A stretch of DNA of 64,000 nucleotides from Mycoplasmatota bacterium (GTDB taxonomy: Bacteria > Bacillota_I > Bacilli_A > MAG-NZ): NCBI GenBank assembly GCA_018394315.1, contig CP074575.1, forward strand, positions 372,001-436,000. The letters run 5' to 3'. Positions 3,001 through 15,000 of the stretch are shown here, piece after piece. Position numbers: made by a program. Each line of letters opens with the position of its first letter. The stretch's first letter is position 1.

Positions 3001-6000
3001 ACGACTATTATATTCGCACTATTAATCATGGTGTTTTCAATAACCGTAAGTGTTTTATTAAATACAAGCAACGTAGATATCGTTGTGATTGTGGTAAGAG
3101 ATTCTCTTTACCTAATCAATTTGTTGAGAAGTACAATAAGATTAGTTCTAACTCTAAATGGAGTATCATTAACGAGGCTATACTTGTTTCTTCTTTCAAA
3201 GACATGGGGAAAAGACTTAATATGTCTTCTACCACTGTAAGAAGAATATTTAATATACATTGTAAACAATCTAGAAAGTCTTTACCTAGAGTATTAAGCA
3301 TTGATGAATTCAAAGGTAATAGTGGTGGATACAAATACAATCTAAGTATTTGTGATCCTTCTAATAGACAAATAATAGATATATTACCTTGTAGATATAA
3401 GGATTACTTACACCACTACTTTAGTACGTTTTCTTCTGAAGAACTAAGTAATGTAGAGGTTATTACTATGGATATGTATCATACTTACCACGATATTTGT
3501 AAGGAATTCTTTCCTAACGCTACTATAGTAATCGATACTTTCCACTTTGTTAGACTAGTTACCAATGCAGCTAATAATGTAAGGATTAGAATTATGAAGA
3601 AGTTTAATCGAATTGATAAGCAATACAAAGTCCTCAAATCTAGATGGAGATTATTTAATACTAAACCAGATTGCATCTCGGATAAATGGATATTTGATAA
3701 AAGGAGTAAGCAATGGACAAGTGATTCATCATTACTTGATTACATGAGAAACATTCATCCAGAGTTAGGTAAGACCAGAGAGTTACTAGAATCGTTTTAT
3801 GAGATTGTTCATAACTCAAGCTATCCTACCGTTTATCATGAGCTCAATAATTGGATCATTGAAGCGAAGAAAACTAACATTGGTGAAGTTAGAGAAGCAG
3901 CATTATCTATAGAAAGGTGGTTACCTGAGATAGTTAATTCGTTTATGATTAATCCTGATACTGAAACTAAATACACCTCAGCCTTTATTGAAGGTAGTAA
4001 TAACTATATCAAAGTGATAAAACGTACTTCATATGGATTTAGATGTTTCAATACTTTTAGAAACAAAATACTTTATCATCACAATAATTCAAGACATATT
4101 ATATCTGCATAGTTATGCACAAAAAAAGGACATAGATTTTTTCAATCTATATCCTTAAACTCTTACTCATTTATTGAGTTTACCCCAATCCTTGACTTAG
4201 AGCCATGATAACTCATTCGACTAGACCTTTTTAGATTATTTACAAATTATCAAAATTATTATATCTTTCTTTTAATTCCATTAATCTGTCTTTACATAAT
4301 AATATTATAATCAAACATTCAATGATATCTATTGTTTCTATATAATCTATATCAAATGAACCTTCTTTCAAAAGATTATCTATAAACTCATTCAAATCAT
4401 TAACTATCTTATCTTCAACACTATAGTTATAAACTTTAAGTGAATGAAGTGAAAAATTTCTTAGCGATAGATGGTCATATTTATTACTCTTAATCGATGT
4501 TACAATTTTTGAATAGGCTATATTTAACGCTGATATCAATCCAGCAATTTGAAAACTTCTACCTTTATTATCAATTAACTTTTTCAAATGCATTTTTGCT
4601 GCAAAATCCAAGATCTCTTGATCGGCTTGAAGAACAAATTCAAATGCATCTGAACTGTCATCATATGCTAATTTATAAACTACATCACAAGAGTATTTAT
4701 TTATAATTCCAATAGCAATATCATTTGATAACATTACTTCTAAACTTTCTTCCCCAACAAATACATTAATCTCATTTTCAGTATCAAGAGCTTTTTGACT
4801 ATTAATCACTAATCTTCCTTGCCTTATGATTGTTTGAGTAATCATAAACAAGACTGATAATAAAAATACGTATATAGTAATGAAGGTGTATAAAAGATGT
4901 AAATTTGTCAATTTGAATATTAATACTAAAAATAACGATATGATAAATGATACAGAAATCTTTCTTATACATTTCTTAAAAGCATGCCAAACTATAACAA
5001 CTATTATTTTAGAGTAAAGATGCCATTTTGGATACTTGCGCTCAATATCCATTAGTTTACTAGAATAAAAGTGTATTAATAAGGTATATAAAAATATTGT
5101 ATTAATTCTTTCATTGTCCTTCATCATGGTATGAGTTTCTCTTAAACTAGTTTTATAGAAGTCATCTACATAAGATGTAAATCGACTATTTATATGCGAT
5201 AATTCAGACGCCAAATACATTATTACTCCATATTTGTTCTTCAAAACGATTAAACTCTCTAGGTTTTCCATACCAAAAACCTTGAACTAAATTTAAGTCA
5301 TATTTAATAAGCGCGTGTAATTCATCTACCTTTTCAATTTTTGTAACAATAACTTGTACTCCTTTAGATACAAGAAATTCTATAAACTTTGAAAATTCTG
5401 GTTTCTTGTAATGGTCAGTTGTTATTTTTATCATATCATAAGGAAATTTTCCATGGATCTCAATTAACTCATCAAAGCTAAATGAGATATTATCAATGCA
5501 TACCTTAAACCCTATGTCTTGTATTTTTCTTAGGTTAGATATACAGTCATTATCCTTGAATGTTACCATATTAATATGTATTAGAATATTGTTGACTGGA
5601 ACTTGTTTATATCTTCGAATCAAGTTATCGAGCCTTTTCACAAATGAATCACTCAATGATTCTTTTGCAACCTTGATTCCTATAATAAAATTTTCATCAA
5701 CTAAATTCTTATTGAGTAATTTTAAATAATTTTTGAGTGCATCCTCAGCTATACCAAAGTCTACATTTGAAATTAGGTTTCTTTTAATAGCTAATGGTAT
5801 AAACACATTAGGATTTAAAACTTTGTCCTTGTTTTTCCACCTTGCAAGTGTTTCAAAACCTACGATTTTGACCTTTTTAGTATCGTATATACATAAATAA
5901 TGGGATATTATCTTATTTGAATCATCAATTCCATAACTTTTTTCTACGTTATTTGGGTTATCCAAATTTATTAAATTATAATTAGTGTTCCGATTTTTAG

Positions 6001-12000: not shown

Positions 12001-15000
12001 CTGCGATCTTCATCGTTTCAGAAGCGCCAGATAACGCTTCATCTAAAGTACCAATCTTCTTTTTAATTTTTTCAGCTGAAATCGAACCGATAAGTACTTG
12101 ATGAGTAAACTGAATATGTTTAATAATCGCTTCATCAAAGAATGTTCCTGCGACACGAATCGATTCAGAAGTTACTATATCACCAAGTGATAACACACCG
12201 ATATCTGTTGATCCTCCACCGATATCAATAACCATAGCTCCCTGAGCTCTAAAAATATCTACACCTGCTCCGATTACTCCAGCTTTGACTTCTTCTTCAA
12301 TAAAACATTCACCAATACCTAGGTCTGAAGCTAGTTCAATTAAAGACTCTCTCTCTATTTGAGTTACTTCTGAAGGGCAGCATAATAGAAGAGTTGATGC
12401 TGAAAGATCATAAGAATCTTTATCTATCTTCTGCAGTACATACTCAATCAAAGTTCCTGCAGATCTAATGTCTGATATTACACCTAAGTGTAAAGGCTTA
12501 GAAATAGTAATTCTATCATGAGTTTTCCCAACCATTTTTGCCGCTTCTTTACCAACAGCAATAGTTTCACCAGTTTCATTATCGTACGCAACTACAGATG
12601 GTTCATTAAATACAACACCTTTCCCCGCTACATACACTAGAGTATTAACTGTACCTAAATCAACACCTATATTTAATCCTTTTTTCTTTTTAGCTTCCAT
12701 AATTACCCTCCTTCTTATTCAGTATCTGCATCTTTTACAAAGTGCCCTCGTGTTTTAAGTAATACTTTGGTACCTAAAACTACCGAAGTTAATGGATTAC
12801 TAGAAACTTTAACTTTTAATCCAAGGTTTTCAGTAAAATACTCAGCAGCATAATCTACTAATGAAACACCACCATTTAATAAGATTCCATCATAATATAT
12901 GTCTGAACATAACTCAGGTGGAGTATCTTTTAATGTAGCAATCATTAAGTTTTTAATGTCATTAAAGATAGGTAATAATACTTCAGTTACGTTTCTTGAT
13001 GTGATTTCTGTATGTCTTGGTAAACCTGTTAATAAATCTCTACCAGCAACTCGCATTGTAGCAACGTCTTTTTTCTCATTTAAAGTTCCTAATTCAATTT
13101 TGATTTTCTCAGCAGTCTTTTGCCCAATCTCAATTTTCAAATGCTGTTTGCAATACTTAATAATTTCATGATCAATAAAATTACCAGCCATTCTTAACGT
13201 TTTAGATAATACAACATCACCTAAGTTAAGAATACCAACATCGGTAGATCCACCACCAATATCAACCACCATTGTACCTCGGTCATTATAGATATCTACA
13301 CCAGATCCTACACAACCAGACTTGATTTCTTCCTCGATATAAACTTCTTCTATCCCTAATTGTTGAGGAAGTTGTAATAAAGCTTTTCTTTCAATTTGAG
13401 TTACCTCTGATGGGCAACACAGTACACCTCTAATTTCAGAGTTGCTTGCATGTAAGTTTACTTTAGAAAACACGAATTTAAGTAAGTCTTTAGCAGCTCT
13501 GATGTCAGAAATAACACCATCTCTTAAAGGTCTAACTATTTTAATTTTATCATGAGTTTTCCCAGTCATGTTATCTGCATCAAACCCGGCTGCAATTACT
13601 TTTCTCGAATCCCTATCGTATGCGACTACAGAAGGTTCATCAAATATGATTCCTTGTCCTTCAACATAGACTAGTAAATTTACCGTTCCGAAGTCGATAC
13701 CAACTCCAACTCTTCTCTCTTCGATGTCTTCATCTGTCTCTTCTAAGACTTCCTCAGTAGTCTCTTCTAAGACTTCTTCAGTAGTCTCCACAGTCTCTAC
13801 AGATTGTACTGATTTTTTTTTAGAATTGATCTTTTGCATTATATACATTCTCCTTTCGCCTTGCGATTAATTTATGGCAAATTCTTTGTGGCAAACACTT
13901 AATGTGCATTATATCAAAAACTAACATATTTCGCTACTAATAGACACTTAACGACAAAGCATATATAAGTAATTGAATCGACAGAACTTCTACAAAATTT
14001 AGTTATTAGTGAAATCAAGTCGTGAAAAATAGTATTTAATTTATTTTTTTAAAATTAATTAAGTAACGATATTGGTAAAATATGGTAATTTTTCATATTG
14101 TATAACTCACGAAAATACAAAGAATAATAGTAATTTATCTAAGTTATTGAGTCACTCTCTGATATAAGGAGGTTATCGAAATTAGTAGCGTAAAGGATGA
14201 TATGTTAACGCCAAATCAAAATATTTTACGGGCTTCATTTTACCTAAAAAGGTAGGGGACTATAAATTATACTCTTCTCCATAGGAAATTCCAATTCCAG
14301 GCGTACTGGTTCTCCTTGATGGGAAGGATACCAAGAAAGTTTACACAACTGATTATTATTCAACTAATTATAAGTTTACATGTAACGATGTTGAATATTC
14401 TCTCAAAAAAGACTGTTTAAACTTCCTTCAAGAAATATTAGATCAAGTTCATTTACCTAATTTGTTCTTTTGCTTTAGTTCATTCAGGTATCCACTCACA
14501 GATATATATACTCGATATGATTTGCTTTAAATTATTATATTATAAAAAAAAGACAAATATTTGCAGTTTATCATTGCTTATATAATCGAGGAGTAGGAGA
14601 TATTTGAACACTTCCAAATACAACATAACTCATATTGAATTCCAAGTCCTTATATCAATTTACGCGGACTTCAAACATCACGCTAAGAAAAAGTAGAAAA
14701 AATCATTTTTTCTACTTTTTGTAGTGTCGTCTCTCGTATTTTCGTCCTTATAAGCTATAAGATCATCGATTGTTTTGTTGCTATTTTATTTAATTTTTTT
14801 AGATTTATAATAGGGAAAAGTACTGGTAATGTTACAATTACTAAAATCATTAATAATCCTATATCACTAAGACGATAATAACCTTCGATCAATCCTATAA
14901 TGAACACAAAAAGAACAAATATTGGTAGTACACACAACAAACCGATTTGGAATATGATTATTCTCTTCATATACTTTGAGAATATTATAACCCTAGTAAA

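Follow-up and report, generated by a model that had tools for sequence, protein, structure and literature searches.

The MreB-EAL module

The window, a 64,000-nucleotide stretch of a Mycoplasmatota bacterium genome, contains a four-gene module present in two copies, all on the minus strand. Each copy is composed of mreB-a, mreB-b, a gene for a membrane protein with degenerate GGDEF and EAL domains (the EAL protein), and a gene for protein X. Gene calls and gene order agree with the layout given in the genome-wide survey's note, including an ISL3 fragment between the copies. The features are as follows.

4126..4156, minus: terminator-like hairpin that closes the module and also forms the end of the convergent ISL3 element (terminator scan)
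4240..5220, minus: protein X copy 1, 326 aa (sequence)
5204..6505, minus: degenerate GGDEF+EAL one-helix membrane protein copy 1, 433 aa (Pfam EAL 94.6 bits; model pLDDT 79; transmembrane helix 6-24)
6506-6580, minus: equivalent mreB-b/EAL gene spacer of copy 1, same length, 75 bp (sequence)
6581..7606, minus: mreB-b copy 1, 341 aa (Pfam 379 bits)
7621..8715, minus: mreB-a copy 1, 364 aa (Pfam 363.1 bits)
8921..9109, plus: remnant of an ISL3 transposase, lying between the copies (54% by tblastn to the intact transposase at 2826-4112; also matches further ISL3 copies at the DNA level)
9334..10314, minus: protein X copy 2, 326 aa, all-alpha with 2-3 hydrophobic helices (sequence; no Pfam or NCBIfam family)
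10298..11599, minus: degenerate GGDEF+EAL one-helix membrane protein copy 2, 433 aa (Pfam EAL 94.3 bits, GGDEF below cut-off; 93.5% to copy 1)
11600..11674, minus: 75-bp spacer between mreB-b and the EAL gene of copy 2, stem-loop followed by a short U run (fold -15.6 kcal/mol)
11675..12700, minus: mreB-b copy 2, 341 aa, B-side paralogue (Pfam 377.4 bits; tree)
12715..13848, minus: mreB-a copy 2, 377 aa, A-side paralogue with an acidic N-terminal tail (Pfam MreB_Mbl 362.7 bits; ATPase motifs intact; tree)

The two copies are 96.1% identical in DNA over a gap-free alignment of 4431 bp. The earlier figure of 95-99% is slightly high, because the identities of MreB-a, MreB-b, the EAL protein, and X are 92.0, 96.2, 93.5, and 99.4%. 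The 618-bp spacer between the copies contains the ISL3 transposase fragment (residues 356-418, 54%). In copy 2, the start of the X gene overlaps the stop of the EAL gene by 17 bp. The stem-loop between mreB-b and the EAL gene is possibly a partial terminator or a stability hairpin, and the terminator scan did not call it. The promoter scan stayed at chance level (68 vs 69.4). Among public sequencing runs, no RNA run was listed for this genome, and three DNA runs hold a small share of it.

The dN/dS of mreB-a copy 1 is 0.28 against copy 2 and 0.12 against locus L001, and that of mreB-b is 0.21 between the copies. The EAL gene gives values of 0.07-0.22, with 0.08 for the EAL half between the window copies. 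All module genes are under purifying selection. An assembly artefact as the source of the duplication was ruled out by the synonymous divergence of 0.03-0.25 and by an independent duplication in L001.

Protein X had been described as lineage-specific. It is indeed rare (2 of 399 scored class genomes), but it has distant homologues at 24-30% identity and is therefore not strictly confined to one lineage. It has no family in Pfam or NCBIfam, its Atlas matches reach only 0.76-0.78, and a PDB search with its model (pLDDT 78.7) gives no match within an E limit of 0.001. Scans of the genomic context of the distant homologues returned nothing. X is an add-on restricted to the window's family and lies outside the conserved operon core.

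The two MreB paralogues

Both MreBs have intact ATPase motifs: phosphate-1, EE, GGGSTD, and adenosine. A module MreB passes NCBIfam NF010539, and the cut-off of TIGR00904 is not reached. The phylogenetic tree places the module MreBs within a 108-row clade of Haloplasma and Izemoplasma paralogues (support 100), apart from canonical MreB and Mbl. MreB-a is sister to the second, I2-like MreB of Izemoplasma-like clusters (support 89). MreB-b is sister to the third Izemoplasma-like MreB (support 82), inside a group with the Haloplasma HB/HC-type genes (88). MreB-a lies outside the B group, and the HA-I1-I2 grouping is not resolved in the same tree. The two proteins thus appear, from this phylogeny, to represent both sides of the A/B split. 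The clade names (HA, HB, HC, I1, I2, I3) were mapped by gene order from those used in a preprint (10.64898/2026.06.16.731841).

Elongasome, wall, and sporulation genes of the host

Six-frame profile searches covered the one-contig genome, which is 93.6% complete. MreB_Mbl gives four matches and one 617-aa frame and EAL gives two matches, both inside the module, so the survey's view that MreB and EAL are confined to it holds. Its claim that MreC and FtsA are absent had rested on Pfam cut-offs; the whole-genome six-frame searches give 0 matches for MreC and 0 for SHS2_FTSA. The single MreD match in the genome is below the cut-off, and its sequence looks like that of an ECF-type S component. Peribacillus MreC, MreD, and MinC probes found nothing in the genome by tblastn, and the MinD probe found only the Soj/ParA gene, in line with the reported absence of MreD, MinC, and MinD. 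The reported absence of DivIVA is likewise borne out, with one sub-cut-off match in a 774-aa frame.

The mreBCD-minCD, mbl, ftsA, and divIVA genes are gone from their ancestral loci in this genome. At the former mreBCD-minCD site, radC adjoins a spoIVFA-like gene with a gap of 31 bp. The genome keeps seven Mur_ligase_M matches, three transpeptidases, and sigE/sigG/spoIID/spoIVF-like sporulation genes. The sole SEDS gene and the sole class B PBP gene sit in spoVE/spoVD-type division-sporulation clusters, and a RodA/PBP2 pair additional to FtsW/FtsI was not found in the genome. Profile counts of one SEDS protein, eight GGDEF proteins, and two c-di-GMP-I riboswitches repeat those obtained before; both riboswitches lie away from the module. 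The proposal that these MreBs are detached from the elongasome is supported by the missing MreC, MreD, and RodA/PBP2 and with the place of the MreBs in the Haloplasma/Izemoplasma paralogue radiation.

The degenerate GGDEF-EAL protein

Besides its EAL domain, the protein carries a degenerate GGDEF domain, indicated by a sub-cut-off Pfam score, the model, and the structure search. GGDEF-EAL folds lead the PDB search with the copy 1 model (pLDDT 79). The GGDEF loop reads FSDEK and has no GG(D/E)EF motif, the mark of an active diguanylate cyclase, which the window copies thus do not appear to be.

The metal ligands of EAL domains are E, N, E/D, DD, and the EGVE glutamate (PMC5301497). Window copies keep E218, and the other positions read K278, H310, D338-N/T, and T388. 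Position 278 is N in 20 of the 22 EAL sequences compared, and position 310, the E/D ligand position, is D in the others. The second Asp of DDFGTG and the EGVE glutamate are lost in 22/22, which upholds the earlier description of the domain as degenerate. R222, D249, E391, and Q408 are invariant in 22/22. The YQP-like motif has no Gln in the window copies and has it in only 4/22 sequences. These assignments, including the Asn equivalent to BlrP1 N239 that is lost in both window copies, were mapped by motif position and not from a ligand-bound structure. In Izemoplasma-type copies, E, N, the first D, and K are retained, and the third metal position is a D. The idea of a shared E-to-K change was abandoned, as that column has K in 18 rows and T in the 4 window-family rows. 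The window copies therefore seem to lack the residue set of an active EAL phosphodiesterase and to be the most decayed of all, with two more ligand or metal residues lost than in the counterparts. The gene encodes a membrane-anchored GGDEF-EAL protein that has lost catalytic residues yet is kept by purifying selection. Some counterparts (L068, L089) have no transmembrane helix.

The window EAL protein groups with the Izemoplasma-type EAL proteins in a 30-row tree (support 86) and not in a 60-row tree, and the branch leading to it is very long in both. An Izemoplasma-only profile ranks it below generic EALs, and a window-family profile ranks Izemoplasma-type proteins first. Synteny with orthologous mreBs favours orthology, which is only moderately supported by these comparisons.

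The c-di-GMP-I riboswitch

Of 40 operon loci scanned, 25 have RF01051 upstream on the operon's own strand, at 51-77 bits (cut-off 35). Eight operon-bearing f15 genomes have only 2-7 such switches each. The G at the G20-like position, a column that presumably corresponds to G20, is invariant in 26/26 aptamers. G20 signifies c-di-GMP as the ligand (PMC6140456). Equilibrium folding of 25 leaders forms the terminator with the aptamer both free (mean 0.77) and locked (0.86), and so favours neither an ON nor an OFF switch.

The window leaders have no RF01051 by Rfam or by a custom model with filters off, and those of the window's two family relatives have no riboswitch either. The suggested link of the module to c-di-GMP thus stands by riboswitch in the relatives and not in the window's own leaders. 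Control of the operon family by c-di-GMP is well supported by these leader sequences, and in the riboswitch-bearing relatives it can be taken as very likely.

Distribution of the operon

The sample is made up of 151 genomes of the Izemoplasma-like order (the order of G049). EAL counterparts were called at E below 1e-65, with the next matches at 1e-37. Counterparts are present in 21 genomes and MreB in 24; 20 have both and 126 have neither. MreB is thus found in 20 of the 21 counterpart genomes, and 126 of the 127 genomes without MreB also lack the counterpart, even though generic EAL genes are frequent among them. The EAL gene and an mreB are adjacent on one contig in 19/21, and the spacing to the last mreB is a few bases in most Izemoplasma-type loci. 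At 4/4 empty sites retrieved, all from one genus and not independent, the flanking genes are joined and riboswitch, mreBs, and EAL gene are jointly gone. These figures go far beyond the chance adjacency that the survey's note had allowed for. The mreBs and the EAL gene are gained and lost as one unit. An 880-aa downstream neighbour was ruled out as a member; it is kept in seven MreB-less genomes.

Beyond this order, the operon is present in records titled Acholeplasmataceae, Mariniplasma, Spirochaetales/Spirochaetia, and Clostridia. Among spirochaetes, it is found in 4/6 genomes of one family, which makes mis-binning unlikely, and in 1/301 of the phylum sample. Clostridia clusters are followed by spo0A, and a true EAL counterpart is missing from five Clostridia that have three such mreBs. 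Haloplasmataceae main clusters have other genes in place of EAL, and lone Haloplasma mreB genes adjoin intact GGDEF-EAL genes (L110, L111). Genome G183 keeps the riboswitch and an intact EAL gene with the mreBs deleted. The window's family lacks the riboswitch and the first mreB and has protein X; in its relatives G002 and G005 MreB has no match. MreC above the cut-off was found in none of 20 genomes. Seven f15 carriers have one weak Mur_ligase_M match only and therefore no wall precursor pathway. Among the records they listed, literature searches found no published description of an MreB-EAL operon.

Proposed function and alternatives

The module is best read as a local, duplicated version of a conserved operon for an elongasome-free MreB cytoskeleton under c-di-GMP control, at a probability of roughly 0.55. 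There is little doubt that the MreBs and the EAL protein form a functional unit, and its role is probably shape change or motility rather than wall synthesis. A-side and B-side MreBs would assemble together into ribbons bound to the membrane, and these would lengthen, bend, or coil the cell or its protrusions, as is the case for Haloplasma HA+HB pairs. Such pairs form ribbons and confer motility in syn3B, with both ATPases needed (10.64898/2026.06.16.731841). The dead EAL protein would be a dedicated accessory factor, most likely binding c-di-GMP much as LapD or FimX do and gating the place or time of ribbon formation or movement. Relatives would add transcriptional control through the riboswitch; in the window's family, where it is absent, any c-di-GMP input must therefore pass through the EAL protein.

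For the family, c-di-GMP binding is slightly more likely than not; for the window copies, it is somewhat doubtful. Direct contact of EAL, or EAL and X, with MreB is a tentative idea. A predicted complex of MreB-b (7-341) with the EAL protein (38-433) scored 0.00 and speaks neither for nor against contact.

One rather unlikely alternative makes the EAL protein a ligand-blind scaffold whose task would be to anchor or space ribbons at the membrane, or to bind X or a different partner. Here c-di-GMP would act only through riboswitch transcription, hence not on the window copies. E. coli YcgF, whose EAL domain has lost binding and works by protein contact, sets a precedent (PMC3989770), and the lost N278 and YQP Gln, the missing riboswitch, and the very long branch of the window protein suit this account. 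It is harder to square with a phosphate-binding Arg and other pocket residues invariant in 22/22 while catalytic ones decay, or with the dN/dS of 0.08 in the EAL half; L068 and L089, without a transmembrane helix, are a poor fit to a pure anchor. Less probable still is an EAL protein that is a c-di-GMP receptor or slow phosphodiesterase, co-transcribed with the mreBs in one regulon, e.g., as a feedback element, but with another target and never meeting MreB. Against it stand its loss from 126/127 MreB-less genomes where generic EALs are common and the few-base gap to the last mreB in most Izemoplasma-type loci, and the missing second Asp and EGVE glutamate argue against hydrolysis (PMC5301497). 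It draws on G183, on the lone Haloplasma mreBs beside intact GGDEF-EAL genes, on the residues retained in Izemoplasma-type copies, and on Haloplasma MreB pairs that move syn3B cells without an EAL partner (10.64898/2026.06.16.731841).

The MreBs could also have kept a role in directing wall synthesis or spore morphogenesis, in which case the EAL protein and X would stand in for MreC and MreD as links to the membrane. The host's seven Mur_ligase_M matches, three transpeptidases, one SEDS, and sporulation genes would fit, as would spo0A after the Clostridia clusters and the small multi-helix membrane protein X of this family. This is very unlikely given the same MreB-EAL core in f15 genomes without a Mur pathway, a single SEDS and class B PBP in spoVE/spoVD-type clusters with no RodA/PBP2 pair, and relatives G002 and G005 without an MreB match.

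Several observations are counted against the preferred reading of a c-di-GMP-controlled MreB cytoskeleton. These are the host's wall-synthesis genes, the hairpin between mreB-b and the EAL gene, the riboswitch-free window and its two relatives, and K278, H310, and no YQP Gln in the window EAL. The EAL-free Haloplasmataceae main clusters and five Clostridia, and G183 without mreBs, are also counted, as is the only moderate support for orthology of the window EAL protein with the Izemoplasma-type ones. Xianfuyuplasma coldseepsis, which has three MreBs (10.64898/2026.06.16.731841), is described as non-motile and coccoid (PMC8397711).

A bolder and unlikely version makes the dead GGDEF-EAL a direct c-di-GMP receptor on MreB ribbons that switches assembly or force output, a second-messenger clutch acting on an actin-like cytomotive filament. 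Its portable operon would have spread among Bacilli, Clostridia, and spirochaetes and, in this walled spore-former, would set the timing of a crawling or shape-shifting phase of the life cycle.

Significance and comparison with known systems

The module points to a cytoskeleton under signal control that would serve shape change or movement. Literature searches found no description of on/off control of MreB-only motility in Spiroplasma or Haloplasma, and the operon supplies a candidate regulator and signal. Signal control would account for the coccoid, non-motile look of the three-MreB Izemoplasma isolate in culture. The reading is directly testable because MreB pairs have already been reconstituted in the minimal cell syn3B. 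A walled, spore-forming lineage dropped the whole elongasome and retained only repurposed MreBs, possibly as a stage between Firmicutes and wall-less Mollicutes.

The module resembles the Haloplasma HA+HB motility pair in belonging to the same paralogue radiation (support 100), with apparently A-side and B-side genes adjacent and repeated twice, intact ATPase motifs, and no MreC. It differs in its order of A then B, with no HC gene, followed by an EAL pseudoenzyme and X. In place of these last two, Haloplasmataceae clusters have a PIN-like gene of 620 aa and another gene of 450 aa. The terms EAL, GGDEF, and c-di-GMP do not appear in the main text of the Haloplasma preprint (Mimura et al., bioRxiv 10.64898/2026.06.16.731841). 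Closer is the three-mreB cluster (I1, I2, I3) of Izemoplasma and Xianfuyuplasma, where the sisters of mreB-a and mreB-b stand in second and third place, followed by a degenerate GGDEF-EAL gene. Unlike that cluster, the window has no first mreB and no c-di-GMP-I riboswitch, the module is duplicated, X is added, and the host keeps wall and spore genes.

With the canonical elongasome (MreB-MreC-MreD-RodA-PBP2) the module has the MreB fold and ATPase motifs in common, whereas MreC, MreD, and a RodA/PBP2 pair were not found in the genome and the ancestral mreBCD-minCD and mbl loci are empty. The Spiroplasma MreB1-5 swimming system also has several MreB paralogues without an elongasome but forms a separate clade, according to the preprint (10.64898/2026.06.16.731841). 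LapD and FimX share with the EAL protein the tandem dead GGDEF-EAL, the lost DDFGTG, and the Arg after the EAL motif, R450 in LapD (PMC3032553); the membrane anchor is shared with LapD. In the NCBIfam LapD family, L047 scores 41 bits against a cut-off of 1020, and the window copy has no match. Unlike LapD and FimX, the EAL protein has no HAMP or periplasmic output domain and no REC or PAS domain, and its proposed partner is an actin homologue rather than a protease or a pilus ATPase.

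Organization of the MreB-EAL module

The MreB genes of the genome are found in a duplicated module.

4240-13848, minus strand: two head-to-tail copies of four genes, mreB-a, mreB-b, a 433-aa EAL protein, and the 326-aa protein X

The copies share 96.1% DNA identity over 4431 bp, and the spacer between them holds an ISL3 remnant. Whole-genome six-frame searches found no MreB or EAL genes beyond the two copies, bearing out the genome-wide survey's note, which had placed all MreB and EAL genes in these tandem modules. Every module gene is under purifying selection, with dN/dS of 0.08-0.28 between copies and 0.11-0.22 against homologues in Mycoplasmatota bacterium WC44 (locus L001). 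WC44 has its own module duplication, and the MreB copies cluster by genome in the tree. At L001:4379-5131 and 5278-6552, X is broken in the first copy, and the two copies are separated by an HTH/TPR-like gene. An IS200 transposase and an intact ISL3 element lie beside the window's module (2070-2531 and 2826-4112). The leader of copy 2 (14191-14456) holds a lipoprotein-like gene remnant, 58% to G000:C1:1442433-1443167 on the same contig.

Protein X is outside the conserved operon core. It is present in two of the 399 class genomes scored (the survey had also counted two, among 400) and has six distant homologues. X is all-helical, has 2-3 hydrophobic segments, and gave no match in family or fold searches. 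Its start overlaps the stop of the EAL gene, which suggests that the two proteins are made together.

The MreB paralogues

A quick 121-row tree without bootstrap puts the window's MreBs in a clade of 108 paralogues, which separates from the canonical MreB/Mbl sequences with support 100. Of the Izemoplasma-type triple, the second gene is the sister of mreB-a (support 89) and the third that of mreB-b (support 82); the mreB-b group (support 88) takes in Haloplasma B- and C-type genes. Mimura et al. describe the paralogue groups (HA, I1, I2) and (HB, HC, I3), where H and I denote the Haloplasma and Izemoplasma-type genes (bioRxiv 10.64898/2026.06.16.731841). According to this preprint, the HA and HB pair forms membrane ribbons and produces movement in syn3B, with both ATPases required; its main text mentions neither EAL nor c-di-GMP. 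The ATPase motifs of the window's MreBs are intact.

Haloplasmataceae mreB clusters also contain two further genes, one conserved, 620 aa long and weakly matching PIN_4, the other of 440-500 aa (L046:10589-12469 and 14920-16431; likewise L042, L043, L078, and L106). Both are candidate accessory factors of Haloplasma motility. A lone B-type mreB in this family adjoins intact GGDEF-EAL genes (L110:6292-11717, L111:674-3469), a second link between module-type MreBs and c-di-GMP enzymes.

The degenerate EAL protein

A single hydrophobic helix at the N-terminus of the EAL protein precedes a decayed GGDEF domain and the EAL barrel. Residues were mapped by motif position, using metal ligands from PMC5301497 and substrate contacts from PMC3989770 and PMC3032553. 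E218, R222, D249, K360, E391, and Q408 are invariant across 22 family members, none of which retains the second Asp of DDFGTG or the glutamate of EGVE. The window's copies carry further changes, N to K at 278 and D to H at 310. The domain is degenerate, as the survey had claimed. Judged from these residues, enzymatic activity is very unlikely and c-di-GMP binding is plausible for the family, less surely so for the window's copy.

The window's EAL, which has a long branch, groups with the Izemoplasma-type family in a 30-row tree (support 86), not in a 60-row tree, and profile tests agree in one direction only. If it is not orthologous, a dead EAL gene was twice recruited to the same place.

Linkage of EAL and MreB genes

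Co-occurrence was counted in 151 genomes of the Izemoplasma-like order; these include kin, so the counts are not independent and no statistic is given. The EAL counterpart is found in 21 genomes, with a clear score gap to the next matches, and MreB in 24. Both are present in 20 and neither in 126. The EAL gene adjoins the mreBs on one contig in 19 of the 21; of the others, one lies at a contig end and one (G183) has no mreBs at the site. Four genomes have MreB without a counterpart: G123 has a cut-off EAL gene, the G188 and G197 loci end at contig edges, and the MreB of G204 is unrelated and canonical-type. The gene that follows the operon (riboswitch, mreBs, and EAL) served as a control and is kept in seven genomes without MreB. 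Four of these MreB-less sites, all in one genus, were fetched; at each of them riboswitch, mreBs, and EAL are gone and the genes on either side adjoin. These shared presences and joint losses speak against the chance adjacency of EAL and MreB that the survey had thought possible.

The operon is also found in records titled Acholeplasmataceae, Mariniplasma, Spirochaetia, and Clostridia. It occurs in 4/6 genomes of one spirochaete family versus 1/301 in the phylum sample, which suggests spread by transfer.

Several loci vary in layout. L058 (G183:C83:1-4332) keeps the riboswitch and an intact EAL gene and lacks all three mreBs; a ribosome-binding site is followed by a 15-codon stub. The genome is 75% complete, and the gap is due either to an exact deletion or to misassembly. 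In four Clostridia records (L081, L082, L085, L117), spo0A comes after a three-mreB cluster that has neither a riboswitch nor an EAL counterpart. One genus (L067, L068, L069) places the EAL gene first, without a TM helix.

The upstream riboswitch

The c-di-GMP-I riboswitch (Rfam RF01051) immediately precedes the operon, in the same orientation, at 25 of the 40 scanned loci (12/12, 12/18, and 1/10). The 15 without it are four with the leader cut off, five Clostridia and three Haloplasmataceae loci (all without the EAL counterpart), L083, and two loci of the window's family. No riboswitch was found in the leaders of the window's own module or of L001 and L002. The ligand-selecting G, as described in PMC6140456, is invariant in 26/26 aptamers. 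A terminator-like hairpin follows the aptamer in 25/25 leaders and is weak in two; leader folding favors neither an ON nor an OFF switch. In 22/25, the terminator is preceded, at a distance of 5-17 bases, by a conserved element that is 7 bases long and complements the 3' end of the aptamer. L069 has two upstream riboswitches (1414-1501 and 1935-2022).

Genome context

The genome has eight GGDEF matches, five with an intact motif, and two c-di-GMP-I riboswitches, both outside the module; the survey had reported the same totals. Seven HD-GYP motif proteins are encoded at several places in G000:C1, five fused to GGDEF domains. The dead pair in the module contains the genome's only EAL domains.

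Six-frame searches of the genome found no MreC or FtsA and only sub-cut-off matches for MreD and DivIVA; the survey had based these absences on Pfam cut-offs. Peribacillus MreC, MreD, and MinC probes gave no match in the genome. The ancestral loci of the missing genes are empty. Under gene names assigned from sequence and order, radC is followed directly by a spoIVFA-like gene, a spoIIQ-like gene by a spoIIID-like frame without mbl, ylmH is joined to the ileS leader, and divIB is joined to ftsZ across a 77-bp gap (G000:C1:1342955-1344744). The genome is that of a spore-former with this divIB-ftsZ junction, in which FtsA, MinCD, and DivIVA were not found. It keeps seven Mur_ligase_M matches, three transpeptidases, a SEDS gene, and sporulation sigma factors, so the capacity for wall synthesis is probably there, for division or spores at least.

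Proposed function and comparison with known systems

The module is best read as a wall-independent system of A+B MreB ribbons that would serve shape change or movement, under c-di-GMP control through the riboswitch in most carriers. Control would probably also pass through the dead EAL protein as a membrane-bound receptor. This reading is favored by seven carriers without a Mur pathway and by MreC over cut-off in 0/20 genomes. Counting against the mechanism, Haloplasma MreB pairs work alone, EAL is missing from five Clostridia, and EAL is retained in G183 without MreB. Xianfuyuplasma coldseepsis is also described as non-motile and coccoid in PMC8397711. Of the survey's proposal, a c-di-GMP-sensing MreB machine, the gene set is real and the machine is supported in part.

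A search outside subscription journals and preprint supplements found no paper on the MreB-EAL operon or its riboswitch. The module is not a member of the elongasome, and by test the EAL protein is not a member of the LapD or FimX families. The module would work like a Haloplasma MreB pair joined to a LapD/FimX-like receptor.
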